Positions 1 through 37,310 of a stretch of 37,310 bases of DNA are shown here, one piece after another. Both the position numbers and the translations under genes were made by a program. The stretch is from the NCBI GenBank assembly GCA_964637495.1, contig CAZWWJ010000001.1, forward strand, positions 15,569 to 52,878, read 5' to 3'. The notes under the pieces are model-generated. The model did not search any database. It saw nothing but the letters and a program-made list of their open reading frames with translations, and was not told where the DNA came from. Each line of letters begins with the position of its first letter. The first letter of the stretch is position 1. The DNA is from an uncultured Candidatus Peribacteria bacterium (GTDB taxonomy: Bacteria > Patescibacteriota > Gracilibacteria > Absconditabacterales > Absconditicoccaceae).

Positions 1-357
1 GTTTGTTTCTTCGTCTTCTTGCAAATCATTTTCAATATTATTAGCTTCTTCATCTACATCTTCTTCTTCATTTTCTGATATTTCCTCATCTTCATTGTTT
101 CCCTCAGCTTCTTCATTTTCTGATATTTCCCCATCTTCATTGTTTCCCTCAGATTCTTCATATATCTGCTCATCCACATCATCTGAAAATTCCTGCTTAA
201 TAGAATCCAATTCATCCTGATACTCTTCTTCCAATTTTTCTCTGTATTCTTGTTCTTCTTGCTTTGCAGTCTCTTGAGCTTCATAGTACATATAATAAGT
301 TACACCACTTCCAACAATCAAAACAGCAACTACAAAATAAAAAAAATTTTTCAGCAT
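1..357 (-). CDS. Membrane-anchored acidic repeat protein, N-terminal part (C-terminus lies beyond the window start)
   Basis: ATG at 355-357 (complement). MLKNFFYFVVAVLIVGSGVTYYMYY is a single N-terminal TM helix. It is followed by an E/D/N/Q-rich tail with two 15-aa repeats (xEGNNEDxEISENEE). The frame stays open to position 1. No family recognised. Confidence 0.6.
   Translation of the reverse strand, partial: MLKNFFYFVVAVLIVGSGVTYYMYYEAQETAKQEEQEYREKLEEEYQDELDSIKQEFSDDVDEQIYEESEGNNEDGEISENEEAEGNNEDEEISENEEEDVDEEANNIENDLQEDEETN
66..155. repeat. 45-bp direct tandem repeat, two copies (66-110 and 111-155), 43/45 identical
   Basis: cttcattttctgatatttcc[t/c]catcttcattgtttccctcag[c/a]tt is read twice in a row. 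It is in frame and encodes the 15-aa acidic repeat of the CDS at 1..357. Confidence 0.8.
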
Positions 358-372
358 TTTTGTTGTTTAAAA

Positions 373-1344
373 TTAAAATTTTTTATAGTAACTTAATATT
401 CCTGCTACTCATATCATAGCAGCATTATCAGTTGAATAAATATTTTTTACAGGAACTATAAATTCTTTTCCCGTATTTTTGTTAACATAATCTACTAAAT
501 TTTTATTACAAGAAACCCCACCAGCTATTCATATTGTATTTGCTTCATAAACTTCAGAAGCTTTTATAAGTTTTTTTCAAAGTATTTCAACTATACATTC
601 CTGAGCCTCAAAACATATATTACACACATCCTGCTCACTCAAACCAGAACTATTATCAATTATCCTTTTAACTCCTGCTTTTATTCACGAAAAACTAAAG
701 TTAAAATCACCCGAATCCAAATAAGCTCTTTTCAAATAAAACCTTGAGTCATTTACTCATACAGAAGCTTTTTCTCATACCCAAGCCCCTCAGGGATAAG
801 GTCCACCAAGCATCTTTGAGATTTTGTCAAAACATTCTCCCGCAGCATCATCTATTGTTCTTCAAAGTCTTTCTATAGAAAAACCGTTCTTATTATAATC
901 TACATAATAAATATCATTGTGTCCTCACGAGGCAGTTAAAACAATTATGGGAAAACTTGTTTCATCAACACTTCTTTCAAGAAAAAGAGAAAATATATGT
1001 CAGTTTATATGATTCACTTCAACAACTTCTTTTCAAAAATACTCTCCCAAAGAATAAGCTCATGTAATTCAAACTATCAAAGAACCGGGCAATCACGGAG
1101 TTGATGTTACACTTACAAAATCAACATCATTTATATCTTCTTTTCAAATGTTTTTCAGCAAGGCCTGAAATTTTTCATTATGTAGTCTTGAGGCAATTTC
1201 AGGAACTACTCCACCATATTCTTGATGATTTTTGATTTGTGAAAAACTTATTAATTTTTTTTCTCTAAAAAAACTTCAGTTACCTTCTATTATTCCTATT
1301 GAAGTGTCATCACAACTTGTTTCTATAGCCAAAGTTTTTACCAA
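373..1344 (-). CDS. tsaD: tRNA N6-adenosine threonylcarbamoyltransferase TsaD (Kae1/Gcp family)
   Basis: With TGA=Gly the product reads MVKTLAIETSCDDTSIGII..., VNHINGHIF (HxxGH metal site, with its Gly encoded by TGA at 1000-1002) and C-terminal STDNAAMIGVAG. It has 324 codons with no in-frame TAA/TAG (checked codon by codon). Start assigned to TTG at 1342-1344, the first start-like codon after the in-frame stop at 1360-1362. Stop TAA 373-375. Confidence 0.85.
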
Positions 1345-1373
1345 ACTATTAATTTTAATTTATAAAATATATC

Positions 1374-3380
1374 TTATCAAGTAAACTCTTCAAAAAAATC
1401 TGGCAGATTATATCTTAATATTCCTTCTCCAGTTACAAGATATAATATCGGATTTTCTCAGGAATCTACAAAAGCAGATTCTATATCCTGTTCATCTAAA
1501 TTAAAATCTATTGTAAAAAAGTGTCTTAAATCATACTCCATTTCTCTTCAAGGTGTAGTTTTTTGAGGATTTTCAGAAACATAAGCAGTAAATGTTTGTT
1601 TTTCGTTATCAAACAAGTATACATAATCTGATCATTCATAAGTTAAAACATCTACTTCTTCACTATACTCACCTTCTGTCCCGGCTTCTCCAACTCTATC
1701 TATACTGCGTGCTTCAAGGTATCAAGTATCTGCGTTTCTGCGAAACTGAAAGATTTCTTTCCTTTCTTTTGACCAGGTCAGGAAACTGCCATCAATTGCT
1801 AAATTTGTTACTCCACCCTCTATTGCATTCTGATATTGATCTAAAGCATCAGGATCAATATCATATAAATTTTCTACTCAAAACTCAGTTTGACTACCTG
1901 GTTTATTTGAATACATAGATATTATAGAACCTTGTTGATTAACTTCCTCATTATCAATAAGTGTATAAATACGACTTTCTCAATATATATTTACATCTTT
2001 TATACCTGAATAGAATCCATCAGAGTCGGTTGTTACAGTTTCTATTCATCCGTTTGTTACATTAATTATGTCTCAATCCTCTGAAAAACAATATAATCAA
2101 TCTCTTACTAAATTCAGACTACATCAATCCATAAACACTGGTAAATCATATTCTACAGTTGTACCTCTTGCTTCTTCGTTTACAATATTAAGCATAGCTC
2201 ACTCATCACCACCTATCATTAATCAATCATCATAATAAACAGAAAGTATCTCTCAAATATTTTCAATTTCTTCTTCTTCAAACTCAAAGATTTTATTTCA
2301 CGAAACATCATCTATTATCACCACATCAAATCAATCATAGTAAACTTCATCCAAAGTATGTCTTAATTCTTCAACATCATGAGACCATCTACCAAGATCC
2401 TCAAGAGCAGTTAATTTATTATCTATACTTTGATATTTTTGCTCTCTTTCAGGACCAGATTCCATATTACTTAATATACCAATCTCCTCTTCAATATCTT
2501 CGATATCATAATCTATTGTTACCTGCTCTCAGTCTACTTCTACAACTTCATTAGTTGATGAACCTATAAAAGAAGTTACCATCGTATAAAGAAGATAGAA
2601 AACAAACAAAAAACCTATAGTAACAGCTATTGGATACCTAAATCTAACAAGAAATTCTTTAACTCCTTGAGTATACTTTAACGAACTTAATATTTTTTCT
2701 TTAACATTCTGTTGATCAATAACTGTTTCAAATTCTACTGAATTCAATAATATAAAGAATATGTCATCTTCATTTATTCTTGAAGAAATATTTTCTTTAA
2801 AATTATTTATAAATCATTCAAGATCCTCTGATTCTTCAAAATACTCCTGTATTTCATCTTTTACAAAAATTTCGGTCAGATTAGTTCCAACACATAAGAT
2901 TCTGTCATTGTTTTCAAGGTCTCACTCCAAAAAATCTGTAAATGTATCTATTTTATCTTCCTTTGAAAAATCATTATCCACAAGATAATTTAATTTTGAA
3001 TTTCTAAATATCACTGTACTTACATCTCCTATCATTGAAGAAATATAAGTACCATTATAAAATATTTGTACCACTCATTTAATCTCAAATCTTTCTACAT
3101 CCTTTATTTTTTCGGAAAAGGTAGAAAGTTTTGTATTCATTCATTGCAACTTCTCCTCAAATCCTGATTTTAGTTTTTTTACAGTAATTTCTTCCACAGG
3201 TGATACAAAATCTATTAATTCTGAAAAAAACTCATTAAATAGATCTTTCTGATACTCAAGGAACTTATCTGTATTTAACAATACTTCTCCCTGCAGGATA
3301 ACTCATTCTCAAAAATCCCTGTAGACAGAAACTTTTTTTTCATCATCTACAGAAAAAAATTTGTGTTGTTGTAGTTTCAT
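1374..3380 (-). CDS. Hypothetical single-pass membrane protein, 668 aa
   Basis: Runs from ATG 3378-3380 to TAA 1374-1376. There is no in-frame TAA/TAG over 669 codons (checked codon by codon) and there are many in-frame TGA. One hydrophobic helix, PIAVTIGFLFVFYLLYTMVTSFIG, sits near aa 240-265, between a ~240-aa N-terminal domain and a ~400-aa acidic C-terminal domain. The track ORF 2529..2747 is an internal fragment of this gene. Confidence 0.6.
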
Positions 3381-3425
3381 ATTTTTTAAAATATAAAGAA
3401 ATAAAAAGTCTAATCCTATTAATAA

Positions 3426-4160
3426 CTAATTTTTAATTTTTTTCAACATAAAATAAGGCAAAAATAAACTATAGTAAACTTTTTTGAAATTCTTTTTTGG
3501 ATTTGTAAGAAGTCTGTAAAACCATTCAAGTTTAGCTTTTCTTATCATATAAGGTGCTCTTTTTTCTGCTCATCCAAGAAAATCAAACAATCCTCATACT
3601 CAAAAAACCATAATATTATATTTTTTGATATTTTCCATATTTTCCAGTATCCGTATTTCCTGAAGAGGTGTACCAAGCCCTACAAGTAATATATTGTATC
3701 ACGTAACACCCTCAAAAACAGAAAAATCAAACTCATTATATCAATCATAAGCTTTTTTGACTTTTATTCAATAATATTCTTCAAAATTTTTCTGAGCTTT
3801 TTTAATAATATCCTCTTTTGCTCAAAAAAACACCAGATTTAGATCTTTGCTTTTAAATTTTGATAAAAAGTAAGGGGTAAAATCCGTACCATTTAAATTA
3901 TCTAATTTTTTTTTATACTGAGTTTTATAAAAAATCTGAAAAGCTATTCAATCAGGTAATATAACATCAGTATTTTCCAGAGATTTTGCATATTGTTTTT
4001 CTTTCTGGGTTTTTGAATCATTTGATCAAAACAAGTTTAAAAAAGGAATATTTGCAAAATACAAAAAATTAACAATTGCATATCCTTTTTCTTTATATAT
4101 TTTATTAATAGTTTCTACAGCTTCTTTTTTATTACCACTGAAAACTTTATCAAGTACCAT
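3426..4160 (-). CDS. WecB/TagA/CpsF-family glycosyltransferase (UDP-ManNAc transferase-like)
   Basis: 244 aa. Motifs: VILPDGIAFQ, LLVGLGTPLQE, and VFGVGGLFDFLGGAEKRAPYMIRKAKLEWFYRL, which is the family signature G-G-x-FD-x-x-x-G-x-x-x-RAP ... LEW-x-YRL. Several of these Gly are TGA. ATG 4158-4160, stop TAG 3426-3428. Confidence 0.8.
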
Positions 4161-4180
4161 AAAAAAATTATTTATTCAAA

Positions 4181-6652
4181 CTAATTATCCATAATAGAAT
4201 CTATTTGATGAACAGCTGAAGAAGTATAAACTTCCTCGCCATCCTCATCAAATAAACTTATTCTTATATGATCCCCATCTCGTAGCAATGCATCATAATC
4301 TGCATAATGTGCAGGGCAAGAATAAACATTTGTTACTTCAAGATTAGGTTGGATTTCTGGAACAGATGGTATGTCTATATTATCGATTTGGCTTTCTGTT
4401 TCAAGATCAAAATCATACTCACAACCCTCACCTACACCATCTCACTCTGTATCAACCGGATCAGGGTTGTTTTCAAAAGGACACATATCATAAGTATCTG
4501 GAAATTTGTTTGCCATTTTATGCTGTTGTTTAAGTACTTCTTTGTCTAAATGCTCTTCAGAATATTCACAATTTTGAGGATCATCTACATTGTCAGGCTC
4601 TTCAGAAATAATACCAACAAAATTTTCCAAACCATCTCAGCTAATATCACTACTACATATATCTGGAATACCATCTCCACTAGTATCACACTGATACTGA
4701 GAAATATCTCACTCACATATACCTTCTCCTTCTATATTAACAGATGTTTTATTAATTATATCTTCTCAATCTTCTATAAAAATGTATGCTTTCACCTCAT
4801 AACTTCAGGAAGAATTATAGCTCCAGGAAGTTGACATAGGATTTTCTTGAGCATCAGGTGCTTGATCAGTACCTTTTATGGTTACATTATTACCATCACC
4901 AAATTCTCGTCTTATTTTTTCTATATGTTCTTGTTCAAAACCTTCAGAGATAATCTCAAATTCTATTTCTTCTCATACAGTTTTAGTTTCATCAGCTTTT
5001 ACTTCTAAACTAGAAGAAATATCTTTCATTGGATCTTTAGCATATATTGTAGCCAAAGACTCTAGATATGAATCTTCACCAAGATAACTTGTTTGCTTTA
5101 TATATTTGCTTCACTCAGACTCATCAAACACAAATAAACGAGTTAAACTATCTGTAGACACTGCTGATGTTTCATCACTATTCCAAATTATTTCCTCAAT
5201 ATTATCAGGAGCAGGCAGTTCTCAATCAACAGAGACTTCCATTCCATCTCATAAATTAACTATATAATCTTCTACTTCTAAGTTTGAAATATTCTGAACT
5301 TCCTGATTAGTAACATTCAAAGACGAAGTTGCCTGAGCAACAGTATTTCAATTTATATCTTTAGCATCGGCATTGACCGTATAAACTCAATCCTCTTCTA
5401 TAGTGTCTTGAAAACTTTGGTCAGGAGACAAAGTATCTGTGGAATATGCACTCCATTCAATTTCATTTATATTGCCATTATAACTAGGTTCACAATAAAT
5501 CTCTACTTCTGCAGAATCTTCATAATCACAATCTATACCAAGATAAACATAACTATCTTTATCTACTGCTGAAATTACCTTACTTGCGGTTAGTGTTTTA
5601 TTATAATAAGGAAAATGTGCAGTAGCTGTAACTGTATAAATTCATTCTTCTGTATAAGTATATACTATTTCTTCACCTTCCTGATAATCACCATTTCCAA
5701 AATCCCATTCTATATAAGAAGGATTACCTTCATATTCTGCCTCAAATTCTACCTGCAAATCCAAGTCTCAGGTAATTTTATCAGTATTTATATCAAGCGA
5801 AATATTTTCCTGCAATAATGTATTAGGACAGTTAGAAATATCACCTTCGGATGCTTCAGCAGGTATATCAACCTCACTATGATCATCAAAAGGACAAACT
5901 GCATCACTTTCATCCAGCACATCATAAGAAATATTTCACTGATAATTTATTATTCATTCAGGATGAGTATTTCCATCGCCAGAGATATCAGTAGAACAAA
6001 CATCTCATACACCATCTCACGAAGTGTCTCTTTGAGATGGATTATATTCATAAGGACAGTTATCCAAATGATTTTTCACACCATCTCAGGAATAATCAAG
6101 CACAAACTCACTTCCTAGGTTGTTGTATATCCTACCAAAGGCAGTTATTGCTTCTTCTCAAGATATCAATTCTTCATAGTTATCTACTTGACCAAAAAAA
6201 TTATTTTCTAGTTGTTCACTGAGTCACTCTTCTATACTTTCTGCTAAAATTAAAACATCCTCATAAGTTGCGTTATTATATCATCATATTCAATTGTTGT
6301 TGTTTATTTCTTCAACAATTTCATCCAGTACTCAGTCTTCAAAAGATCTAAGTACACAATTTTTTCTTAATTGATTGTTTTCTATCTGTTCAGATGTATC
6401 AGGATATTCTTCTGCAAAATCTTCCATTAGTCAGGATTTTGCATTTTCAAAGTCTTGAGGAGGAACTTTGCAGTTAAATCATTGAGATTTGTTTCCAAGT
6501 ATAATTATTTCAAACCTTGAAATACTATCCTGGTTGGAAATATCTTCATAAGAATAACTTATATCATCCAAATCATTTTTAAAATTTTCATTAGCATTAA
6601 CAAATGTTAACCCTAAAAAAACCAAAACCATAAGTAAAATTATTTTTTTCAT
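4181..6652 (-). CDS. Secreted 823-aa surface protein with thrombospondin type-3-like Ca-binding repeats and PKD-like domains
   Basis: Signal-peptide-like N-terminus MKKIILLMVLVFLGLTFVNA. TSP3 signature: [43 protein letters not shown], and again near the C-terminus (CDTSGDGIPDICSSDISGDG ... CPFENNPDPVDTEGDGVGEGCEYD). PKD signature: WDFGNGDYQEGEEIVYTYTEEGIYTVTATA. There is no in-frame TAA/TAG over 824 codons (checked codon by codon). Stop TAG 4181-4183. Confidence 0.75.
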
Positions 6653-6793: not shown

Positions 6794-7684
6794 ATGAAAG
6801 CTATAGAGGTAAATAATTTCTATAAATCTTTTGAAAAAAACAAAATAATTAATTGAATTGATTTTTTTGTTAACAAGGGTGAAATTTTTGCATATCTTGG
6901 CACCAACTGAAGTGGAAAAACCACCACTATAAGAAGCCTTTTGAATATTTACTCTCCGGATAGCTGAACTCTAAAAATCAACTGAAAAAATACAACTGAA
7001 ATTGATACATCACAAATTGGATATCTACCGGAAGAAAGAGGTTTATATCTTGATATGACAGTTGCAGAAATTATGGAATACTTTGGCAGATTAAAAAAAC
7101 TTTCAAAAAACAAAGCAAAACAAAACTGACTAAAATACCTTGAAAAAGTAGGTTTGGAAAACAAACGAAACCTAAACATCAAACAACTTTCTTCAGGTCA
7201 GCAACAAAAAATTCAGCTTTGAATATGTATAATCAATTCACCTGAAATTCTAATATTAGATGAGCCTTGGAAATGATTAGACCCTCTTAACAGAAAACTT
7301 TTTATAGACTTATTCTTAGAACTCAAAAAAATATGAACAACTATTCTTTTCTCATCTCATCAAATGGAAGATGTAGAAAAAGTTTGTGATAGTTTATTAA
7401 TCTTAAAAGACTGAAAATCCAAAGCTTTCGGAAACATTCAGGATGTTAAAAAAAGTTTTGGAAAAAATACTATAAAATTATACTATCAGGGCGAACTACC
7501 AAAAGAAACAAACTTATTTGCAGCAAACATCGAATGAAATTATGCTGAAATAATACCCAAAAACAATTCCTGTAGTAACTCAATAATTGATTATCTTATC
7601 AATAATAACATCAAAATTCTTAATTTTGAATACTCTTATCCTAGTCTTAATGAAATTTTCATAAACATATTCAAAAACAATTAA
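6794..7684 (+). CDS. ABC transporter ATP-binding protein (ABC-2/NatA-like)
   Basis: Walker A is G-T-N-[TGA]-S-G-K-T-T (TGA at 6908-6910). Signature motif LSSGQQQK. Walker B ILILDEP. H-loop SSHQMED. 296 aa. ATG 6794, TAA 7682-7684. Confidence 0.9.
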
Positions 7685-7750: not shown

Positions 7751-8563
7751 ATGTCTAATAACTACCCTGAAATGCCAAAGATTTGATTTGGTACCTGGCA
7801 AATCAAAGATGAAAATTGCATTCAAAGCGTACAAAATGCTCTTGAATTAGGATACAAACATATTGATACTGCCATAGCTTATTGAAATGAAGAAGAAGTA
7901 TGAAAATGAATTAAAAACTCCAACATCCCAAGAGAAGAAATCTTCTTAACAACCAAAATATGGATGGATAGCTTAAAACATCAAGATGTAATAGATTCTG
8001 TAAACTGAAGTCTTGAGAGGCTCCAAACTAATTACCTTGATTTAATATTAATACACCGACCTTCCAACAATGTGCCCTTAAAAGAAACTCTGGAAGCTAT
8101 GAAAGAACTACAAAACAAGCAAAAAGTAAGATATATTTGAGTAAGCAATTTTACTACAAAGCTTTTAAAGGATTGTATTGATATACTAGGAGAAAACTCT
8201 ATCTATGCAAATCAAGTAGAGTATCATATTTTTCTGGATCAATCAAAACTTCTGAATTTCTGTAGAGAACATAATATAAAACTTGTAGCATATTCTCCTC
8301 TTGCTCACTGAAATCTTATCCAGAATGACAAAATTAAAGAAATTGCTGAAAAATATCAAAAAACTACATCACAAGTAGCTCTTAAATGGCTTATTCAACA
8401 AGAAAATGTTTATGCAATACCTAGATCTCAAAGTTATAATCACATAAAAGAAAACTTCCAGATATTTGATTTTGAATTAGATGAAACTGATTTTGAAAAA
8501 TTGAATAATCTACCAAAAAACAAAAGAGTACTTAATCCTCCTTTTGCTCCTGAATGGGATTAA
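7751..8563 (+). CDS. Aldo/keto reductase (2,5-diketo-D-gluconate reductase-like)
   Basis: Motifs: [45 protein letters not shown]. 270 aa. ATG 7751, TAA 8561-8563. Confidence 0.9.
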
Positions 8564-11032: not shown

Positions 11033-12043
11033 ATGAGTTTTTACCAAAGCAAAATATGGGAAACTATAAATAAAGAAATATACCAAAAACCTACATTTGA
11101 TTTTTGTCTTTTTGACAGAAATTATTTTTGAGTTATCAAAAAAATCAAAAAAGGTTTTATTGAATTAAACTGGTACCAGATACTTGGAGTAGAACTACCA
11201 GAATCCTGGGAAAGCAGCTTAGAACAAGCAACTTATATCAAAGAAGAAATCAACAAATTAAAAAGAGATTTTGCAAAAAATTACTGAGATATATACTTTC
11301 AGATTGGATTTACAAATATTATTGACCAAAGATACACAAACAATACAAAAAACCAAGAAACAATAAATGAAATTAAAAATCTTAGACTCCAAAAACAAGA
11401 ATATATGAAAAACACTTTCTGACTAATTCCATCTCCAAAAGAAAACATGCCAGTTGCAACTAATTACGTAGATCTTTCTCAAAGCCTTGATCAAATACGA
11501 AGTGATATCTCTAAAAACACGAAAGAAAAAATAAAAAAATGAAATAAAAAACTAAAATTCGAAGAAGCAAACTGAAAAGACATCAAAAACTTTTATGAAC
11601 TTTGGTTTGATATTTTATCAGAAAAATGAATCTACATAATCCCTGAACAACAATACTTTGATCTAATTAACTATCTAAACAAAGAAAAACTTGGTAAACT
11701 ATTTGTAGTAAAAGATGAAAACGATAAAATTGCTGCTGGAAGTATTTTTGCTTTCTATAAAGATACAGTAATTTATCTTTATGGAGCAACTCACAAAAAT
11801 TTTGGGAATATATGAGCAGACCAAAAGCTAAAATTTGACACAATAAAATATGCAAAAGAAAAAGAATTCAAATATTTTGATTTCCGAGGAAGTTCACCAG
11901 TAGGATTCCCCAACCATCACCTACAAAATGTCACAAATTTCAAAAAAGGATTCAATGGTATATGGGAAGAATATCTTTGAAATTATGACCTTGTTTTCAA
12001 CAAAAATCTTTATACTGTATACAAGTATCTAAGAACAAATTAA
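11033..12043 (+). CDS. FemAB/FemX-family aminoacyl-tRNA-dependent peptidoglycan peptide-bridge transferase
   Basis: 336 aa. C-terminal half reads KIAAGSIFAFYKDTVIYLYGAT...GADQKLKFDTIKYAKEKEFKYFDFRGSSP...NVTNFKKGFNG, the typical Fem-family core (lyGas ... FK.gFgg). ATG 11033, TAA 12041-12043. Confidence 0.7.
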
Positions 12044-13299: not shown

Positions 13300-15081
13300 T
13301 TATTTGTTTCTTTTTCTCTCACTTTCTTTTAAGTATTTTTTTCTTAATCTAACATTATCCGGAGTTACTTCTACATACTCATCAGGTCATATATAACTTA
13401 TTGCATCTTCAAGAGTCATTTCCTGGATTGGGGTCAAATTTATTGCTTCATCACTTCCAGAAGCTCTTACATTAGTTAATTGCTTGGATTTAGTAAGATT
13501 TACTACCAAATCACCTCCTCAAAAGTGCTCCCCAACTATCATTCACTCATACACCTTGGTTCATGGTTTTACAAATATTTTTCATCTGTCTTGAGTTTTC
13601 CATATACTGTATTTTGTTGTTTCTCAGTTTTCATTACTTATTAAAGAACCAACTGTTCTTTTGTTTATATCTCATTTATACTCATCATAATGAGAGAAAC
13701 TGCTGTACATTATTCATTCCCCTTTGGTAAGAAGAATAAACTCTGATCTAAAACCTAATAAGCCTCTTGTTGGAACTTCAAATCTGATAGTTGTTAATCA
13801 ATTTTCAGATTGCATATCTTTCATTTGTCATTTTCTCCCTGCAACTTTCTCTATTATAGTTCAAGAAAGATCCTCTGGAACATGAGTTATCAAGGTTTCA
13901 ATTGGTTCCAATGTTTTTCCTTCTTCTTTCTTAAATATAACCTGAGGAGCTCATACCTGAAGTTCATAACCTTCTCTTCTCATATCCTCTATCAAAACAC
14001 CAAGATGAAGTTCACCTCTTCCTGAAACTATGAACTTATTCTGATCAAAATCCACTTGTAATCATACATTTTTTTCTATTTCTTTTTCTAGTCTTTCTTT
14101 GATTTGTCTGGAAGTTAGAAATTTTCATTCTTTTCCTGCAAATGGTGAATCATTTGGCATAAACTCCATAGTAAGAGTTGGAGGGTCTATACTAATTTCT
14201 TCAAAAGGTGTAAAGTCATCTTCACCTATGGTTTCTCCAACAAAAATATCTGAAATTCAAGCTACTGTTACTATATCCCCGCATCTTCATTCATCTATTT
14301 CCTGTTTTCACATACCAAGACTATTAAATACTCTTGTTATCTTTCAAGTCCTTTTTTCGTTGTTACTGTTTTTTATGGTTACCTGTTGTTGTTTTTTTAG
14401 GGTACCTTCATATATTCTTCATATACCAAGTCTTCCAAGATGATTATCATAGTCAAGATTTGTTATTTGCATCCTTAGGGGATGGTCAGAATAGTTGGGA
14501 GCTTCAGGTACTTGTTCCATTATAGTATCAAGTATAGGAGTAATATCATTTGATTCTTGTTCTAATTCTCTTTTTCAGATACCATCTTTTGCATTTGCAT
14601 AAAGAACCTCAAAATCTAATTGATTATTATCAGCTCAAAGCTCTATAAATAAATCAAAAAGATCATCTACAACTCCATCAGGTCTTGCTGCAGGCTTATC
14701 TATTTTATTTATCACAACGATAGGATGTAATCCAAGTTCTAATGATTTTTTAAGTACAAATTTGGTTTGGGGCATAGGTCCCTCATAAGCATCTACCACC
14801 AACAAAACACTATCCACCATTCTCAATACTCTTTCTACTTCACTCCCAAAATCAGCATGTCATGGTGTATCCACAATATTAATAATGTTATCATTATAGT
14901 TAATTGCTGTATTTTTGGCATATATTGTCATTCCTCTTTCTTTTTCCTGATCATTTGTATCCATTACACATGTTTCCTCCATTTGCTCTAATGTTCAGGA
15001 TTGCTTCAGAAAAGCATCAACTAAAGTTGTTTTTCCATGGTCTACATGGGCTATTATTGCTATATTTCTTATTGATTGCAT
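13300..15081 (-). CDS. typA: Translational GTPase TypA/BipA
   Basis: [22 protein letters not shown] (G1). DTP-[TGA]-HADF (G3, TGA at 14860-14862). VVINKIDK (G4). C-terminal [16 protein letters not shown]. 593 aa. TAA 13300-13302. Confidence 0.92.
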
Positions 15082-17274: not shown

Positions 17275-18717
17275 TTAATCAATTTTTTTGAATAAAACTA
17301 TTTTTTCATTATTCTCCAAAGCATATCTTGCTTTGTTACAACTTTCCGGCAATACAGGTTCATACAAATCAATTAATTTATGCAAAAGATAACTTAAATT
17401 ATTCAAACAATTCTGGATATATTCACTTGAATTATCTTTTTCCCAGGGTTTTTTCTCATCAATATACTTGTTTCAGTATATTCCAATTTTGTTGATTATA
17501 TGATAAGCTGAAGATATTTCAAAATCCTCCATATTTCTTTTGGCTTCCTTCTCTAATCTATCAACTTCTGTTTTAAAATCCTGGTCAACATTATCAAAAT
17601 CATTTATTTTTACCTGTTTTTTGTTTGCAAGATTAATAGTTCTGTTCAACAAATTCCCAAAATTATCAGCAAGGTTGGAATTTATTACATTTTTTAATTC
17701 CTCTTCCTGATAATTTCAGTCTCCAAAAGTATTCATATAAGCTCCAAGATAATACCTGACATATTCCTGTCAGTATTTTTCTAGCTGCTGGATTGGATCT
17801 ATTACATTACCAAGAGATTTGGACATTTTTTCACCATTTGGGTCAAGAACATATCAGTGACACAAAAGTTTCTTACTAAATGAAAGATCTGCTCAAGCTA
17901 GCATACCCTGCCACATTGCTCACTGAAACCTAAGATTGTCTGGCCCAAATATCTGATATCATGGTCGCCATTGATCAAAATTTTCTTTATCATCTGCATA
18001 TCAAATTGTTCCAAGATAATTTGTTAGAGCATCAAACCATACATATATTACCTGCTCTTCGTCATTGGGAACAGGTATTCCCCAAGGCATTTTTTCTTTT
18101 TTTCTGGAAATACTAATATCCTGCAAATCTCTTACAAAGTTTTTAAGTTCATTCATTTTGGATTCTGGTTTCAGAACTTCTGGGTTATTGTCAAGGTACT
18201 CCAAAAGTTTATCTTTGTATTTTGAAATGGCAAAAAAATAATTCTCTTCCGATATTGTAATTGGTTCTTTTTTGTGAACAGGACATTTTCCGTCTTCAAG
18301 ATCTTTTTCTGTTTTGAATTCTTCACAATCTACACAATATTTTCAGGTATATTCTTTTTTATAAATATCTCCTTTTTGCATACAATAATTCCATATTTTG
18401 TATACATGTTTTACATGATAATCTGCTGAAGTTCTATAAAAAAAATCATAACTTATATTAAACTTCTCACAAAAATTTTCAAAACTTTTTACATACTTGT
18501 CTACTAATTCTTCAGGAGAAATTCAATTTTCTTTTGCTTTTTCGTATAATTTTGCGCCGTGTTCATCAGTTCAGGTATTAAGGTAAACATTTTCATTTCC
18601 AAGTTTTTTCCTAAAATACCTTGCTAGGATATCCGCTTGGATAAGCTCCATAGCATGTCATATATGAGGCTCTGAATTAACATAAGGAAGTGTAGTTGTT
18701 AAATAAAATTTTTCCAT
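17275..18717 (-). CDS. metG: Methionyl-tRNA synthetase (short form, 480 aa)
   Basis: MEKFYLTTTLPYVNSEPH-I-[TGA]-H (HIGH motif, TGA at 18658-18660). CVDCEEF...CPVH zinc knuckle. KMSKSLGNVIDP. No in-frame TAA/TAG (checked codon by codon). TAA 17275-17277. Confidence 0.9.
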
Positions 18718-18812
18718 AATTATTTATTTTAATTTTAAATTACTATATTATATAAAATAGTCAAAAACTCTTTTTTTTTAACAATAACTTATTTTATTTT
18801 TTTATAAAAAAA

Positions 18813-18884
18813 TGGGTCAGGAGGGAATCGAACCCTCGACCACCGGCTTAAAAGGCCGTTGCTCTACCCCTGAGCTACTGACCC
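18813..18884 (-). tRNA. tRNA-Lys (anticodon UUU), 72 nt, no encoded CCA
   Basis: The minus strand folds by hand as GGGTCAG TA GCTC AGGGGTA GAGC A ACGGC CTTTTAA GCCGG TGGTC GAGGG TTCGATT CCCTC CTGACCC A. That gives a 7-bp acceptor stem, a 4-bp D stem, a 5-bp T stem with a TTCGATT loop, and the anticodon loop C-U-UUU-A-A. Confidence 0.9.
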
Positions 18885-18925
18885 ACAGCAGAAACTACTT
18901 AACCAAGTAGCTTCTAAATATTTTT

Positions 18926-19120: not shown

Positions 19121-19145
19121 TTTACTAACTTAATATCTAAAAAAG

Positions 19146-19757: not shown

Positions 19758-19782
19758 TGTTTAAAAACTTTACTCAAATAAA

Positions 19783-20163: not shown

Positions 20164-20192
20164 TTTCAAATTTTTTAAATCATAAATTCAAA

Positions 20193-20327: not shown

Positions 20328-20593
20328 TAGTTTTTATTAGATAATAAATCTTTTAATCATTTTCTTTCAAAATATTGCTCAAGCATTCTATTTGTTATTC
20401 AATACTTTTTTAATTTCTGTTCTGCTTTTGGTAATGTTTTTCTTATCCACTTAGTATCTCCTTCTTCATTTTTTCTTTTCAAAAGATTTGCATACCATGC
20501 TATTGCTTTTTCATGTTTAGTATAAGATATTGCTCTTTTTCTATTAATATTTCTTAGCCAGTGATTATGTCTTTGCCTCTTCTGATTTCACAT
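20327..20593 (-). CDS. Small basic protein, 88 aa (unassigned)
   Basis: MGNQKRQRHNHWLRNINRKRAISYTKHEKAIAWYANLLKRK... Open frame with TGA=Gly (checked codon by codon). It starts 27 nt downstream of the rpsG stop. Its stop TAA 20327-20329 overlaps the next start. Confidence 0.45.
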
Positions 20594-20619
20594 TCCTAAA
20601 AAAACTTTAACAAATTAAA

Positions 20620-21093
20620 TTATTTAACATACTTTGCAAGATAAGCATAAGCTTTATTTGCTTCTGCCATTTTATGAGCATCTTCTTTTCTTTTAATAGC
20701 AGCTCCTTGATTTGAATAAGCTGCCAACAATTCTTCCGACAAAGCTTTATACATAGGTTTTCATTTTTTCTGCCTGGAAAATCTAATTATCCAGTTAGAA
20801 GCATAAAAAAACTTTTTACTTGACTTAACTTCTAATGGAACCTGATAAACTGCTCATCATATTCTTTTTGATTTCACCATAACCTGAGGAGAAGCATTTT
20901 CAATAGCAAGCTCCCATACTGCATATGGATTCATGTGACCATTTTTCTTCACCTCACCTAGTGCATCAAAAAATATTTTTCTTGCTTTAGATTTTTTTCA
21001 ATCAAGCATTAAATAATTTACAAACTTCTCTATCTTTGAATTAGTACTTGGTAAACCAAAAAGTCATGGTCTCTTGAACTTCTTTTTCGCCAT
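20620..21093 (-). CDS. rpsG: 30S ribosomal protein S7
   Basis: MAKKKFKRP...[19 protein letters not shown]...[23 protein letters not shown]...[19 protein letters not shown]. 157 aa. TAA 20620-20622. Confidence 0.92.
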
Positions 21094-21122
21094 TTATCAA
21101 AATTAAATTATAAAAGATTGGG

Positions 21123-21542
21123 TTACTTTTTCTTTGGTTTCTTTGTTCCATATCTTGATCTTGATTGCTTTTTTCATTCCACTCCTGCAAGATCATAAGC
21201 ACCTCTAACCATATGATATTTTACACCCGGCAAGTCCTTAACTCTTCCTCATCTTACCAAAACTACACTATGTTCCTGTAAAGAGTGCTTCTCCCCTGGC
21301 ACGTAAGCCAAAACTTCAATACCATTTGATAATCTAACTTTTGCTATCTTTCTCTGAGCTGAATTTGGCTTCTTAGGTGAAGCAACAGTTACCTTCAAAC
21401 AAACTCATCTTTTGAACGGAGAAGGATAAGTTGTACGAATCTTTCTTTTGGCTGTATTCAAACCATACCCCAATGCCGGAGATTTTGTCATCTTCTTTTT
21501 TGGTTTTCTTCATTTTTTTATCAGTTGGTTTATTGTTGGCAT
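21123..21542 (-). CDS. rpsL: 30S ribosomal protein S12
   Basis: [13 protein letters not shown]...[43 protein letters not shown]-[TGA][16 protein letters not shown] (TGA at 21249-21251). 139 aa. TAA 21123-21125. Confidence 0.92.
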
Positions 21543-21904: not shown

Positions 21905-22990
21905 ATGAAATTAGATGATCTTGAAACAAAAGGTTACAATGCAGAAAAACTTTCAGATAAAAATGGTTTTGATTTGGATGAATTTGAAAAACTAATAAAT
22001 CAGTCAGAAAAGAAACAAAAGGAAAGTATTACTCTGGTTTTAACAAAAGAATTATCAAAATTTTTTTGAATATTTTGAGTTTTAACAGTATTTGGGATAA
22101 TTTTTGTTAACTTCAATCTTTTTTATTATGAATTAAAGTCAACATTCTTCAGCGAGCAAACTTATGCAGAAAACTCCTGATTTACTTCTATACAAGAACT
22201 TTCTTCTCAGAAAATAAATATTGGTGATAAAAAAGACACAGAAGAAAAAAGTCACACAACAACAGGTAATCAAGAAACCCATTCTAATAGCAGTCAAAAA
22301 GATACTTCTATACAAGAAACAAAGCTTAATAGCTTAAAAGAAACAACTGATAGTTTCACAAATCTAAAAAAAGAAAACATAAAAGAAAAAATAGATGAAC
22401 TAACTAAAGAGAAGGAATCTCAGAGTCAAACAAATATATATGAAAAACACATAGAAAAAAAACTTTTCACAAAAAATAGAAAGTATGATTTTGAATTTAA
22501 TTTATTACCTCCAGACAATAGAATAATAATACCATCTATAGGAGTGGATGCCCCTCTTGTGGACACAAATTATTCTAACACTCAAGAAATGATGTATGAA
22601 GAAAACTTTGAAGAAGAATTATATGAATGAGTTGTAAACTACCCTTTCACTCCGGACCCGGATGAATCTTGAAATACATTTGTATTTGGACATACAAGTT
22701 ATTACTGGCGAAAAGACAATCCTTACTGAGAAGTTTTTGCAAGAATGTGACAATTAAGTAATAATGATAAAATTAAAGTTATACGAGAATGAAACTTACA
22801 CGAATACAAAGTAACCAAAGAAAAAATAATGCGACCGGCAGAAGTTACTAACTTCTACGAACAACACAAACACAAAGATGCAATAACATTGATGTGATGC
22901 TACCCTATCGGATCAGATGCACAAAGAATCCTTATAAAAGCAGAAAAAACAGATACTTACCAAAACAAAAATTTAGCTGTTAACAACTAA
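21905..22990 (+). CDS. Sortase-family transpeptidase with N-terminal cytoplasmic segment, TM helix and long linker
   Basis: TM helix FFGIFGVLTVFGIIFVNFNLFYY. Catalytic-domain motifs: IIIPSIGVDAPLV, NTFVFGHTSYY (His), AITLMGCYP (TLxTC-like Cys), AQRILIKAE (Arg). 361 aa. ATG 21905, TAA 22988-22990. Confidence 0.75.
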
Positions 22991-22998
22991 TAAACAAA

Positions 22999-25246: not shown

Positions 25247-26185
<939 letters not shown>

Positions 26186-26258: not shown

Positions 26259-27578
26259 TTAAATTTGGTAAGTTTCTTCTGTTCATTTTACCATATCCTT
26301 TAGTTTATAAACTCAGTTTGTTTTTTCTCACTCCCCAAGAATTACCACATACCTAATTCACTTCTTGTTTGCATAATCAAGTTGTTTTTTCATTTTTTGA
26401 GGATAAGGAAAAATTTCTACCTGTCTACCTTCTTTTATAAATCATCTTGCAAGATATAAGATGTCCTGATTTGTTTCTTCAAAGTTAACAAAAAAGTATT
26501 TAGAGCTGAAAAAATAATTTTGATCTATTTTGTTATTTTCTGTTAACCAACTAAACAATCTATCAACTCAAATACTCCCTCCAACTCAAGAGAATCAGCT
26601 TTTGGGATCCAGATTGGATGTTAAATCATCGTACCTTCATCAAGAAGCTATACTACTATACCCTCTATAATCCTGTATAAAAGTTTCAAATACTATTCAA
26701 GTATAATAATCAAGACCTCTTACTATCCCGAAATTTATTTTATAATCTATATCAACCTCAAAAATCTCTCCCATATTCAAAAGATTAGAAAGAAAAAGTT
26801 TTAGTTGATCTATTCATTCCTGGAAATTTTGATCAGGTATGAAATCCCTTATACTGCTTAATAGATTATAATCTACATCCATTGTAATGAAATCATATAT
26901 TTTATTTTTTGTTTCTTTATCAAATCAAAGATTGCTAAGTTCCTTGAAAAACTCTTCTTCTCAAATTTTATCAAACTTATCAAGCAATACAGAGAGCTTA
27001 TGTGACTTTTTCTGATCATTTCCACAAACATAATCCAAGAAAGAAGATATAACTTTTTTGTTGTTAATGTGAACAACAAATCTTTCACTAATATCAAATT
27101 TTTCTTTGAGCTGAAATAAAGATTTATAAATCACAAACACCACCTCCCAGTCATAAAAAGGAACATCACCCTGAGAATTAGATCGTATGGCATCAATATC
27201 TGCCTGAACAAACTCCTTGTATCTTCACTTCTGCTGTCTTTCACCTCTCCAGACAGAATCTATCTGATATCTTTTGAAAGGAAAATTCAAAGAAGACTTC
27301 CAGTCCACCACATATCTTGCAAAAGGAATTGTTAGATCAAACCTAAGAGAATAATCCTTTGCATCTTCTGCTCACTGAGCAAGTCAATATACACCAAAAA
27401 TCTGCTTACTTGTTTCCTCTCATCATTTTGCCTGTAATACACTGTTTTTTTCCATAGCAGAAGTAGAAACATGATCATAACCAAACATTTTATAATTGTT
27501 TTCTATTGTTTCCAGTATCTGATCGTATACTTTTTGTTGCCAGGGAGAATATTCACTAAATCAACCAGGTCTTAACAT
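26259..27578 (-). CDS. hisS: Histidyl-tRNA synthetase
   Basis: Motifs: [35 protein letters not shown] (motif 2), GLDYYTGIVFE, ASGGRYDDL, FSGVGGSIGVDRL (motif 3). 439 aa. Contains track fragment 26961..27143 in frame. TAA 26259-26261. Confidence 0.9.
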
Positions 27579-31346: not shown

Positions 31347-32396
31347 TTATAAACCAAACTCGTAATATTCTTGGTACTGATTTGGGTTTCAGGGAGTTAT
31401 ATGTAGTTTTCTATTAGGAAGATCCATAATCAACGAAGTTACACTACCTGTTCTTCCAAAAAATCATTTATCCTGATAAGGTGAACATATAGCATAAATA
31501 CCATTTTCTTTATCTTGCAATATATCCTTACAAATCTGTATATCAAAACTTTCATACTCTGATATAAGTTTATTTGCCTGAGAATACCTTTGCCTGCTTC
31601 GTTCAAGGTTTTTGTCTTCTTTTTGCTTTTCTTCAAGCCAAGGAAAATCTTTGTGAATTTCAGTATCAATAAAATGATTGGTAACAACAAATTTTTCTTC
31701 CTGCCAGGTTGTATAGGCTTTATCATCAAAAAACTGATAATTAAAATAATTTCAGTAAGCATCTCCAGAAGTTATACTACTGCTTTTTCAGTTTTGATTA
31801 GCTAATACAAAATTGTTTACTTGCTCTATATTTTCACATTCCAGAATCTTTCTAAGCATCAAATGTACTGGCAAACCTACAGAATTTATCTGAGAAGAAA
31901 TAAAGTTCAAGGAAACTCATATCCCAAAATTATTAAATCATATTTTTCAGACAAGACCTGGTTCCATCAACATCAAAATCTGATTACCATTATCATTATT
32001 TATCTTGCCAACAAAAAACAAAGACTCAAAATCCTCCAGAAAATCTCGGTTTTGAGCAAGAATTCAATACTTGGAAAGATAAAAACTTGTACATTCATTC
32101 AAAAAACCTTTTTCTTTCAAGTTCATAATTTCACTACGGGCATTGATTGCATATATCCACATAACATCCTGCCCTGATCATTTGGCTATTCACTGTATTT
32201 CTTTGGCAAGATTAGGGGTTTCTTTTTCTATCTTGTCTTTATAAAATTCTGCTTTCTGTAAAACTGTTTCATCTTCTTCTTTGAAAAGCTTTTTATAAAT
32301 ACTTATAACTTTGTCTATTCTTTCACGAAATAGTTCTCAGTGTTGCAATCATATTTCATAATTACTCCCTTTGAAAGTATATTTCTGAAAATTCAT
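31347..32396 (-). CDS. Peptidase C45 / acyl-CoA:6-aminopenicillanic-acid acyltransferase-like Ntn hydrolase
   Basis: 349 aa. MNFQKYTFKGSNYEIGLQHGELF. Candidate autoprocessing nucleophile Cys102 in FLNECTSF. FVVTNHF. C-terminal GRTGSVTSLIMDLPNRKLHITPGNP. No in-frame TAA/TAG (checked codon by codon). The 107-aa track ORF 31439..31762 is an alternative-frame shadow of this gene. Confidence 0.7.
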
Positions 32397-32412: not shown

Positions 32413-33165
32413 CTAAACATCTCTGGTAGCTACCAACAACATTCAGTCAGTTGGCCTTACATTAAATTGTTTATAAAGATAATGATCTCAAACTCAATCT
32501 CAAGTTGGATCTACAGGATTTCAATCATCGTCTCTTATATAGTCTCTTCTTACAAGATCATCTTCCAGATACTCCAAAGCATCAGGATTTACAGATCCCA
32601 AAACTGATCTTATCCAATCAATATAACTTTGGTCAATATTTCAGATTTGTTTGTTCAGTACATTATATCCATAATTTTCAAGTTTCATAAAATATCTTAT
32701 CACTTCTTCTGCTTTTGTAGTCAAAAATATTACATCCGGGTTGTTCAATCAGATTCTTGAAACTGAAAGCCTACTTCATATTCAAAATCTTCTATAATCA
32801 TCTTTGACACCATTAACAAGTCGATAGGAAACATTATTTCATTCATACTCTCAGTTTTTGGAAAAAGAAATTCATACAGGATTTCATTCTGCAGTATGAG
32901 AAACCACTGCCGAATCTGCATTTTCAATAAGTTTATTCCTTATGATATTTTCATTCAAACTTGGAAATATTTCAAGTAACAAATCAACCAACTCTTCATA
33001 ACTTTGTTGTACCAACTGATTATAAGAATCACCTGTATAATAAGAAAAATTAATACCTGTACTTAGTTTTTCCGAAACTTCTCTTGAAAATTGCTGTATC
33101 ATATTCTCTATAATACCTTGTTGATTACTAGGTTTTTCCTCTGGATTTGTGTCTTTTTCTCTCAT
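32413..33165 (-). CDS. Hypothetical protein, 250 aa
   Basis: ATG 33163-33165. The track ORF 32884..33165 continues through 17 TGA codons to TAG 32413-32415 (translated codon by codon). The C-terminal half is Gly/Asp-rich (DDDGNPVDPTGDGVGDHY). No family recognised. Confidence 0.55.
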
Positions 33166-33189
33166 TTTTATTAATTTATTATATTAAAT

Positions 33190-33840
33190 TTACATTTGCT
33201 TGATATGATTAAGTGTATTTGTTGTACTAACTCAGTATTCTTCAGGGTAATTCGGAACTCCGTATTTTCTGCTGTCTTTTACTCTAAGTAAGATAAGTTT
33301 GATATCATCATAAGAAAGTTTTCTGTAAACTTTCATCACCTTGTCAGCTGTGTCCAGATGCTCTTCATGCAAAACAACTCAATCTGGTTCCAGAAATAAA
33401 GCAACATCAGAAGGTCTTCTATCTTCGTCCATATATTCATACTTGTAAGTATCATCTACCTGCTGTTGATTTAGTATCATCTGCTGCCTTATCCAATCAG
33501 AATATATTGGTCTGTTATTTCATTTTCTTTCTTTTACTCTCTGATCTCACTCTACCCCTACCATAAGATAAAGATCCTGCCTTGAAATACCAAACTGATC
33601 AAGAATTTTTCTTTCCAATGTCTGCAGGTATCACATATGCCCCATATGCAAAAGATCCCATGTTGCATTAACAACCACTACTTTTTTGCCTTTCTCCTGC
33701 TCTTCCTGAATTTTTTCTTTTGCATTGATAAGAACTTCTACTATTTCATCAGTGGCATCCTCTCTCAAAAAATCCATTCTTTGAGCTTCTTGATATCTTT
33801 CTTGATAATCCTGACTGTTTATTGTTAGAATTCTTTCCAT
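33190..33840 (-). CDS. Cytidylyltransferase-like (HIGH-motif nucleotidyltransferase, TagD/RfaE-domain-II type) protein, 216 aa
   Basis: After a ~50-aa N-terminal extension: VVVVNATWDLLHMGH-M-[TGA]-YL (variant of GxFDxxHxGH). A C-terminal YGVSTTNTL resembles the ISST motif. Open to TAA 33190-33192 (checked codon by codon). Confidence 0.6.
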
Positions 33841-34285: not shown

Positions 34286-34381
34286 TCTGTTTTATTTTAG
34301 AAGATAAATTTTACTGTATTATTACATTAACATATTTTTTCAAAAACTCAAGAGAATTTTTATGATATTTAAATTTAAAAA

Positions 34382-35404: not shown

Positions 35405-35571
35405 TTTTGTAATAGCTAAGAAATAAAGTTAACTGGATAATAACAAATAATTTGGATTTTTCAATCAATAATTAATTTTTAAACACATAAAATTGAAAAA
35501 AACATTGAAAAATCCAATATGTTTTTTATATTCAAATCATCCTGTTTGGAAAAAATACAAGAGGTTTTGTC

Positions 35572-35874
35572 ATGATTAATATCAAAATACTTCCGGTAAA
35601 AATATGTAATCCTTTTGTTTCTAAAAAGACAAGCATGATAGCTTTATCTTTGGTGAAGAATCCTAGACACTGGCGAGTTTATTTCTATGAAACAGACAGG
35701 ATAAGAGAAAAGTGGCTTTTCAACAAGCATACAAAAGACTTTGTAAGCATAAAGTTCCTTAAAAACAGTAGTCAAATGTTTGACGAATGTAACTGTGTTG
35801 TTCTTGGGGAAATTAGAATAAATTCAGTCCAGCTAAAAAACATTGAAAAACAACTACTCAAAGCATTGCTCTAA
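35572..35874 (+). CDS. Hypothetical protein, 100 aa
   Basis: ATG 35572 is preceded by AAGAGG (35559-35564), the only Shine-Dalgarno-like element I saw in the window. TAA 35872-35874 is followed directly by a strong terminator. No family recognised. Confidence 0.5.
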   Translation: MINIKILPVKICNPFVSKKTSMIALSLVKNPRHWRVYFYETDRIREKWLFNKHTKDFVSIKFLKNSSQMFDECNCVVLGEIRINSVQLKNIEKQLLKALL

Positions 35875-35878
35875 CACA

Positions 35879-35910
35879 AGTCAGAGGTATCTTCTCTGAC
35901 TTTTTCTTTT
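35879..35910 (+). terminator. Rho-independent terminator
   Basis: AGTCAGAG gtatctt CTCTGACT forms an 8-bp perfect stem, followed by TTTTTCTTTTG. Confidence 0.65.
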
Positions 35911-35984
35911 GATTTATTTTTTGTTGTTTCTTTCTTTTGATTTCTTATAAAATATGCAGTTTAATAAAATCATAGCTTTAACAA

Positions 35985-36389
35985 ATGATTTATCTAGATT
36001 TCAAGATACACAGGAAATATCTAATAAATTTCTTACTTGCAAACACTAATAATTTTTCGTGTGAAAAATATCAGAATGATATAATAACTTTTCAGAACTT
36101 AGCTCGAGAAAAATCCTCTAGTATTTACAAATTCCTAACAGGACGAACCACTCCAACAGACCTAACCAAAAAGAAACTTGATTATATATTAACCAACCTA
36201 ACAAAATATTATTATGAATTAGAAAATAAGGAAGTTTTCCAAAAATTATACCACCAAACAAAAGAATACAAAAAATTTTGCAAATCACAGCGAAAAAAAA
36301 TTTTGAAAAAAGTTATAGTATTATTAAAAACATCCTATGATTTTCTCCACAAGGAAAATATACAGTTTATATCACCCATCCTGGTATAA
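35985..36389 (+). CDS. Hypothetical protein with helix-turn-helix-like segment, 134 aa
   Basis: ORF from ATG 35985 to TAA 36387-36389. ITFQNLAREKSSSIYKFLTGRTTPTDL looks like an XRE-type HTH. The start is uncertain. Confidence 0.4.
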   Translation: MIYLDFKIHRKYLINFLLANTNNFSCEKYQNDIITFQNLAREKSSSIYKFLTGRTTPTDLTKKKLDYILTNLTKYYYELENKEVFQKLYHQTKEYKKFCKSQRKKILKKVIVLLKTSYDFLHKENIQFISPILV

Positions 36390-36481
36390 AAAACTGACAG
36401 TATCTTTGAAAAAACCAGATACAGTGGGGAAACAAAGAATCTTTTGAAAATCATACCACAGTTTATCTCTGGCATGAAATT

Positions 36482-36709
36482 ATGCATAGTTTTTTTGGAT
36501 ATTCTGATATTGAGCATGTCATAATACAGTTTATCTATGATGAAGAGCTTAGAACACAATTAAACTGATGAGATTACCCTCCTTTTATAGGTCATCCTGA
36601 GCTAAACAATTTAATGGAACAAATTTATCCTTACCGAAAAAAATATCTAATAACAAACAAAAAAAACATATATTATTTCAAAGACAAAATGGAAAAAATT
36701 TTCAGTTAA
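36482..36709 (+). CDS. Hypothetical protein, 75 aa
   Basis: Runs from ATG 36482 to TAA 36707-36709, with two adjacent in-frame TGA (LNGGDYPPF). The frame is open upstream to 36230, but there is no ATG/GTG/TTG between 36281 and 36482. Confidence 0.3.
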
Positions 36710-36801
36710 CCAAAAAATAAATTACAACTTAATTTATCAAGTGTATTTAAGTTTTTAAACACATACTCTACGAAATTTTCCAAAAAATCAGACAAAAAAA
36801 T

Positions 36802-37310
36802 TTAATTGTTTTTAAAAATCCTTTTAAAAAGCTTTTCTTCGTTGCCTAAATAGATTTCTCTCAAAACCTCAAGTGCAAATTCTTTTACCTTAAAATTATA
36901 ACTTGCAATAGTATCCAAAAAATCAGACCAACCAAGTTTGATTACTTTTATTTTTTCTCAGTCTTCTTCTATATTTTGTTCTTGGATTTTTTTGCAGTTT
37001 CTTGCAATAAATATATTGCTATTAAAAGCTATTTTTGAAGATAATTTATAAGAGTTGAACAACTCCCAGTCATTACTTACAAGTCATGTTTCTTCCAATA
37101 ATTCTCTTTTTGCTGTTTCTATTGGTTCTTCTCAAGATTCACAAGTTCATCAAACCAATCAATAATAAACTTCTCTTCAAGGTTGTTTTTCTTCCAAAAT
37201 AATTATTTCTCAGGTTTCTAGTATAGCTATAACATCTACGGTATCCTCTCTTTTAATTTTCTCAAAAATTTGTTTGCTTCAATCAAACATCTCCTGCTCC
37301 CATTGATAAA
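36802..37310 (-). CDS. NUDIX hydrolase (5' end may lie beyond the window; an internal ATG at 37288-37290 would give 162 aa)
   Basis: Complete NUDIX box G-G-T-C-E-S-G-E-E-P-I-E-T-A-K-R-E-L-L-E-E-T-G-L. Four of its Gly are encoded by TGA (three of them at 37132-37134, 37147-37149, 37150-37152). TAA 36802-36804. The frame is open to 37310. Confidence 0.8.

Follow-up and report, generated by a model that had tools for sequence, protein, structure and literature searches.

A 37,310-nucleotide stretch of contig CAZWWJ010000001.1 (assembly GCA_964637495.1), hereafter called the window (i.e. the whole stretch that was analyzed), is very probably part of the chromosome of an uncultured bacterium of the Absconditabacteria (candidate division SR1), whose code reads UGA as glycine and CGA and CGG as tryptophan and leaves UAA and UAG as the sole stops. 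This code is already known and is not new. The initial annotation, made from the letters of the window, had recognized the UGA part of it and had singled out translation table 25 as what determines how the window must be read. The latter claim could not be kept: table 25 is incomplete for this window because it changes only UGA, while CGA and CGG behave as tryptophan codons, and 24 positions come out wrong.

Reading frames and gene set

Open reading frames (ORFs) of at least 100 amino acids (aa) were compared under table 11 and with TGA, TAG or TAA each read as sense. Table 11 gave 19 ORFs, the longest of 178 aa, with a summed length of 2,334 aa. Reading TGA as sense brought the longest ORF to 827 aa and the sum to 17,548 aa, in agreement with the earlier observation that the standard code fragments the genes. 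The two controls behaved differently: TAG as sense brought no gain (longest ORF still 178 aa) and TAA as sense gave a longest ORF of only 313 aa, a modest gain as in any AT-rich DNA. The G+C content of the window is 29.1%.

Greedy non-overlapping calling with TGA as sense yielded 39 ORFs before correction. Two plus-strand ORFs were rejected as spurious, one at 1-396, where a longer contig shows the N-terminal end of a minus-strand gene of 580 aa instead, and one at 1148-1384, antisense to TsaD. The corrected set contains 37 genes and one 5' partial gene (minus strand, 1-357), and is 91% coding. The 37 genes end with TAA (30) or TAG (7) and never with TGA; the coding fraction and the 30 TAA stops of the initial annotation are thus retained, whereas its 39 coding sequences and 8 TAG stops have to be lowered. 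In-frame TGA codons number 362, i.e. 3.2% of all codons, and occur in 35 of the 37 genes, and no TAA or TAG is found in frame. Pfam matches span these codons from end to end (TsaD 7-263 of 264, GTP_EFTU 2-187 of 188, Aldo_ket_red 1-289 of 291, Pyr_redox_2 2-291 of 291), and in alignments with solved structures the homology runs on beyond the last TGA to the C-termini.

TGA codons

An independent test was made with TGA, CGA and CGG masked as X. For each of eleven proteins, the best homologue with a solved structure was aligned, and the residue opposite each codon was tallied. The aligned window proteins include TypA, aldo-keto reductase, MetRS, AAT, WecG, HisRS, FemAB, the ABC ATPase and sortase; ValRS, also used in the masked alignments, is encoded on the contig just past the window end. 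Homologues of solved structure were preferred because the database homologues of TsaD share the recoding and are therefore not independent: the best 120 fall into the recoded group itself, and their residues at TGA columns are mixtures of G and W. TGA was found opposite G at 68 of 122 positions (56%) and opposite W at a single one. Results for GGN codons, opposite G at 67 of 108 positions (62%), are indistinguishable from those for TGA (Fisher p=0.35), and TGA differs clearly from all other codons, which face G at only 107 of 3049 positions (3.5%; p=4e-58). It follows that TGA is a glycine and not a tryptophan codon, which excludes table 4. Both the reading of TGA as sense glycine throughout the window and the exclusion of a Mycoplasma-type code, proposed in the initial annotation, are thereby upheld.

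Three relatives were also read at the DNA level: an ENA scaffold, the Absconditabacteria metagenome-assembled genome GCA_036541305.1, and the complete genome of Ca. Absconditicoccus praedator (CP054059.1). With the codons masked in the alignment, TGA codons of the window pair with TGA (54), GGT (15) and GGA (10) in these relatives, and GGN codons of the window pair mostly with TGA. All twelve TGA codons cited earlier at conserved motifs lie in frame at the positions and in the motifs given for them. Some are listed in Table 1; the others are in Tmk (two, D[TGA]VDGS[TGA]K), in ribosomal protein S12 (VR[TGA]GRV) and in the NUDIX protein (three).

TGA is the commonest glycine codon of the window, with 362 of 708 glycine codons (51%). 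The share of about one third given earlier is correct for TrxB (33%) but does not extend to the window as a whole, where it is half. In the genes of ribosomal proteins (18926-21542: L28, L25, L19, S7 and S12) TGA accounts for 19 of 49 glycine codons versus 343 of 659 elsewhere, a difference that is not significant (Fisher p=0.08). This lower use may point to selection on genes with high expression.

CGA and CGG codons

The window contains 22 CGA and 2 CGG codons, spread over 16 genes; together they would make up about a quarter of its tryptophan codons (24/97). Other codons usually assigned to arginine are AGA (290), AGG (53), CGT (11) and CGC (3). Per 10,000 codons, CGA occurs 19.7 times, CGG 1.8 times and TGG 65 times. 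In the masked alignments, the 11 aligned CGA codons face W five times and R never, the remainder being opposite G (2), P, D, L and H, and the one aligned CGG faces W. The proportion opposite W (6/12) does not differ from that of TGG (19/34; p=0.75). Conversely, none of the 12 faces R, nor K, compared with 62 of 101 AGA, AGG and CGT codons opposite R (p=3e-5; AGA 53/83, AGG 8/16), and these other arginine codons face W only once in 101 positions (p=2e-6). Summed BLOSUM62 scores for CGA and CGG are best for W (39), the runner-up having -1. Apart from CGA and CGG, all remaining sense codons with at least 7 aligned positions score as standard. Five of the six W sites correspond to conserved tryptophan motifs of their families; the sixth, in the ABC ATPase, is at a variable position.

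The same tendency is visible in the DNA of the three relatives. Window CGA codons are paired there with TGG (6), CGA (3), CGG (1) and ACT (1), and never with AGA, AGG, AAA or AAG, whereas window AGA codons are paired with AGA (48), AGG (13) and AAA (12). Relatives' CGG faces a window TGG at sortase codon 268 and at M23 codon 459, and a window CGA at sortase codon 310. At sortase codons 269 and 294, where the homologue columns lack K, the residues listed as R are in fact CGA or CGG codons in the DNA of these relatives, alternating with TGG. Altogether 12 of the 24 codons are informative, and all of them suit tryptophan or an aromatic or hydrophobic residue, none requiring arginine. Judged from these comparisons, CGA and CGG behave as tryptophan and not as arginine codons in the window. 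The earlier statement that conserved tryptophans use TGG is correct for the YATWWIKQ motif of sigma-70 (TGG TGG), but several conserved tryptophans are written CGA or CGG.

Individual sites are listed in Table 1. Beyond the window end, two further CGA codons of ValRS, in SVD[W]S and LG[W]PE, face conserved W. For HisRS, the corresponding sequence in relatives is Q(A/C)DID(V/A/T)I-W; some of these relatives are correctly translated, since their G and W contents are normal. A second CGA of FemAB (11498-11500) falls on a column that is mostly hydrophobic or aromatic in relatives, with one R, whose codon was unchecked, and one N. We considered that CGA could stand for glycine, or be a T-to-C error, as suggested by the conserved G in the HisRS and FemX alignments with PDB structures. 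This was rejected, as closer relatives have W or aromatic residues at these sites and, for HisRS, a near-identical second assembly carries the same codon. The second CGA of AAT lies in a poorly aligned stretch and is uninformative.

In the N-terminal part of the M23 peptidase, two CGA codons (23104-23106 and 23188-23190) occupy the same spot of a repeated motif, TQ[CGA]SYTGNLI and KN[CGA]NFTGNLI. No homologue aligns over this repeat; the pair suggests a conserved aromatic residue.

Table 1. Recoded codons at diagnostic sites, and other located features of the window
Feature	Coordinates	Strand	Remark
TGA, TsaD HIN[G]H	1000..1002	-	no residues but G (105) and W (14) in homologue column
TGA, ABC ATPase Walker A GTN[G]SGKTT	6908..6910	+	ABCA3 has G at same position
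TGA, TypA/BipA G3 motif DTP[G]H	14860..14862	-	G in E. coli BipA
TGA, MetRS HIGH motif HI[G]H	18658..18660	-	HLGH in Aquifex aeolicus MetRS
Two TGA, TrxB GxGxxG (G-x-G) binding flavin adenine dinucleotide	26156..26164	-	in frame in motif
CGG, WecG/TagA glycosyltransferase P-x-QE-x-[W]	3651..3653	-	PKQEKW in TagA
CGA, PKD/TSP3 surface protein	4280..4282	-	TGG in Ca. Absconditicoccus praedator
CGA, PKD/TSP3 surface protein	4907..4909	-	TGG in Ca. Absconditicoccus praedator
CGA, ABC ATPase GLENK[W]N, upstream of signature motif	7166..7168	+	GLEDKWN in nucleotide-binding domain 1 of ABCA3; R or A in other ABCA nucleotide-binding domains
CGA, aldo-keto reductase LIH[W]P	8057..8059	+	W in 3/3 solved homologues
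CGA, FemAB-like FDF[W]G	11885..11887	+	M, L, W, F or Y in relatives; never R/K
CGA, sortase codon 269 HTSYYW[W]K	22709..22711	+	column W 31, R 10 only; relatives CGA (listed R), TGG, TGG
CGA, sortase codon 294 KVI[W]EG	22784..22786	+	column W 21, R 18 only; relatives CGA, CGA, TGG
CGA, sortase codon 310 KIM[W]P	22832..22834	+	variable column; relatives TGG, ACT, CGG
CGA, HisRS QADIDAI[W], after motif 2	27183..27185	-	G in distant solved HisRS; W in lineage relatives
CGA, AAT/peptidase C45-like QN[W]DF	32046..32048	-	QNWDF in 2x1d
TsaD gene	373-1344	-	TTG start at 1344
tRNA-Lys(UUU) gene	18812..18885	-	sole tRNA gene of the window and of the contig sequence read (~50 kb)

Alternative readings of the code

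Two alternatives concern the meaning of TGA. That it encodes tryptophan (table 4) is the assumption behind the public proteins predicted on this contig: in the TsaD prediction (P0001) each of the 16 TGA codons is translated as W, as table 4 would have it, and coding density cannot distinguish table 4 from table 25. This is nevertheless hardly conceivable, given the single match to W against 68 to G in the masked alignments and the presence of TGA at the glycines of P-loops, GxGxxG, HIGH and DTPGH; TsaD would moreover consist of 5.3% tryptophan and only 5.9% glycine. A standard code, in which TGA codons would result from pseudogenes, frameshifts, assembly errors or selenocysteine or read-through recoding, is practically inconceivable. 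It would have to account for 362 TGA codons that lie in frame, in 35 of the 37 genes, while TAA and TAG never do, for Pfam and PDB matches that are full length in a single frame, for the same interchange of TGA and GGN in independent relatives' genomes, and for the same codons in the near-identical second assembly; nothing speaks for it beyond the fact that table 11 breaks every gene.

The other two concern CGA and CGG. Under plain table 25 these would be rare arginine codons, everything but UGA being standard. We consider this quite improbable, although its assignment of TGA to glycine is fully supported, table 25 is by convention the one assigned to JAEDAM01 genomes, and CGA suits arginine in basic stretches of the orphan ORFs g36-g38 (e.g. 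KSQ[R]KK). None of the 12 aligned codons faces R or K, compared with 62 of 101 opposite R for AGA, AGG and CGT; half of them face W, in the conserved motifs LIHWP, QNWDF, DW, LGWPE and PKQEKW and in the variable EDKWN; relatives exchange CGA and CGG with TGG and never with AGA or AGG; and columns composed of W and R only, without K, would be an unnatural substitution pattern for arginine. A dual or transitional CGA, read as tryptophan at some sites and arginine at others or incompletely reassigned, appears very improbable, as all informative sites fit tryptophan or an aromatic or hydrophobic residue, none needs arginine, and the rate of matches to W equals that of TGG. It draws some support from the half of the CGA and CGG codons that are uninformative, from the column of sortase codon 310, where S, K, R, T, W and Y all occur, and from the ORF island at 35.4-36.8 kb, where CGA is overrepresented (1.4 kb hold 5 of the 24 CGA/CGG codons of the window).

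Several observations weigh against the code proposed here, with UGA as glycine and CGA and CGG as tryptophan. The reading of CGG leans on one informative window codon (WecG) and on the pairs of CGG and TGG in relatives, the second window CGG (Tmk) being uninformative. Twelve of the 24 CGA and CGG codons lie in unalignable or orphan stretches, and are hence uninformative, among them the five of the doubtful ORF island, where arginine reads as naturally as tryptophan. The CGA of MetRS is ambiguous, with a one-residue indel beside the WP motif. Finally, scans of the window and both contig extensions (~50 kb of a 56-kb contig; tRNA genes by ARAGORN and Rfam) found no tRNA-Gly(UCA), tRNA(UCG/CCG) or prfA/prfB. 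No tRNA(UCA) or tRNA(UCG/CCG) was found by ARAGORN in 58 kb of the three relatives either.

Predicted decoding machinery

Following published work on the clade, UGA would be read by a tRNA-Gly with anticodon UCA, release factor 2 would have been lost, and release factor 1 alone would terminate at UAA and UAG. CGA and CGG would be read by tRNAs with the anticodons UCG and CCG that bear tryptophan identity elements, with G73 and no A20. Both changes may have proceeded via codon capture under AT pressure, after which the AT-rich TGA would have become the majority glycine codon in the lineage.

Comparison with known genetic codes

Using Codetta, Shulgina and Eddy (2021, eLife 10:e71402, PMC8629427) predicted UGA to be reassigned to glycine and CGA and CGG to tryptophan in Absconditabacteria, an assignment repeated in a 2026 paper. 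They attribute the CGA/CGG change to tRNA(UCG) and tRNA(CCG) with tryptophan identity, and report for this group a GC content of 0.26-0.38, with fewer than 37 CGA and fewer than 7 CGG per 10,000 codons. The window has the same assignments, AGA being its main arginine codon, and falls within these bounds (GC 0.291, CGA 19.7 and CGG 1.8 per 10,000). It differs in the nature of the evidence, which was obtained site by site from solved structures and relatives' DNA and not from a genome-wide profile, and in coming from a divergent lineage. The window thus brings independent site-level support for the reassignment of CGA and CGG, so far resting on the computational prediction of Codetta, and this support comes from a lineage only ~50% identical to described Absconditabacteria.

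Table 25 was described for SR1 and Gracilibacteria (Campbell et al. 2013; Rinke et al. 2013, as cited in PMC8629427). The window shares with it UGA as glycine, UAA and UAG as stops, and the bacterial group. In table 25, however, CGA and CGG stay arginine, and it would mistranslate 24 codons in 16 genes, placing arginine at tryptophan positions that include conserved residues of protein families. Table 4 (Mycoplasmatales, Entomoplasmatales and some endosymbionts) resembles the window in its sense UGA, low GC, reduced genome and identical gene boundaries, but would put tryptophan at 362 glycine positions of the window, where UGA faces W at 1 of 122 aligned sites; table 11 shatters all genes. In Anaerococcus and Onthovivens (Bacillota) CGG is reassigned to tryptophan, with CGA kept as arginine and UGA as stop (PMC8629427; the 2026 paper). 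As in these genera, an arginine CGN codon has been captured by tryptophan at low GC; unlike in them, the main reassigned codon of the window is CGA, and UGA is reassigned too. Domain calls, structure predictions and searches for novel genes on the window should use UGA as glycine together with CGA and CGG as tryptophan.

Lineage and database records

The best named matches of the window proteins are to Ca. Absconditicoccus praedator (sortase, 46% identity), Ca. Vampirococcus lugosii (TsaD, 53%) and SR1 RAAC1, in line with the SR1/Gracilibacteria affiliation given by the initial annotation. Identity to any database relative does not exceed 55% for TsaD and 48% for sortase. From these matches and from shared synteny, the lineage appears to be a divergent new member of the Absconditabacteria (GTDB class JAEDAM01, Patescibacteria). 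The genes of sortase and of an M23 peptidase (21905-25191) are neighbours in the window, as they are in each of the three relatives that were read. A PKD/TSP3 surface protein similar to that of the window (4181-6652) is encoded ~7 kb downstream of this pair in Ca. Absconditicoccus praedator. Sortase, M23 peptidase and PKD/TSP3 protein may form a cell-surface module that is conserved among these epibiotic predators. A scan of the genome contigs with TypA gave only an irrelevant 30% match to Lutibacter, the peptide patterns having probably missed TGA-coded glycines.

The window is near-identical to contig k141_197087 (56,115 bp) of ENA ERZ27266011, from which it differs by one homopolymer base and eight single-nucleotide polymorphisms. 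The run of nine T at ~3905-3913 has eight T in k141_197087, where WecG is consequently frameshifted and split into two called genes; the eight polymorphisms are clustered in g32 and g33 (32891-33808). Because of these differences, the window is regarded as a second assembly or a strain of the same organism.

Whenever a genome is UGA-recoded, density-based pipelines settle on table 4, because gene boundaries are identical under tables 4 and 25, and this choice explains the public proteins laden with tryptophan. The public predictions for TsaD (P0001), FemAB (11033-12043; P0137) and sortase (21905-22990; P0152) differ from the table 25 translation by approximately the number of TGA codons. Many database relatives look likewise mistranslated, with up to 7% W and less than 2% G, and glycine columns appear as mixtures of G and W. 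The W entries in the TsaD columns are apparently TGA codons translated with table 4.

Orphan ORFs and other features

Three short orphan ORFs (35572-35874, 35985-36389 and 36482-36709; g36-g38) form an island at 35405-36801 on the plus strand, in the orientation opposite to their neighbours. The first two contain no TGA and ~1% glycine. None of the three has a match in Pfam or PHROGs. Only g37 is called in the public record, and its one other occurrence is in a Logan contig of 1.4 kb. The island could have been acquired recently, evolve fast or be non-coding. It is rather unlikely that the window represents a deep undescribed branch of the Absconditabacteria in which both captures went unusually far, or that the island is recently acquired standard-code DNA that precedes adaptation. 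Among the other orphans, g30 has no PHROGs match and g27 a marginal one, and g10, g20 and g32 have no NCBIfam match. A very basic orphan ORF of 88 aa lies between the L19 and S7 genes (20327-20593, minus strand) and matches nothing in Pfam or NCBIfam.

A 45-bp tandem repeat (63-161; 2.2 copies, 96% match) is located in the N-terminus of the 580-aa minus-strand protein, which extends past the window start. It encodes acidic units EGNNEDxEISENEE and is responsible for the artefactual plus-strand ORF at 1-396. The GC skew of the plus strand is strongly negative (C 6468 versus G 4394) and climbs to about zero only at 10-12 kb and 22-24 kb, two stretches of plus-strand genes. As 25 of the 37 genes are on the minus strand, the skew follows gene orientation.

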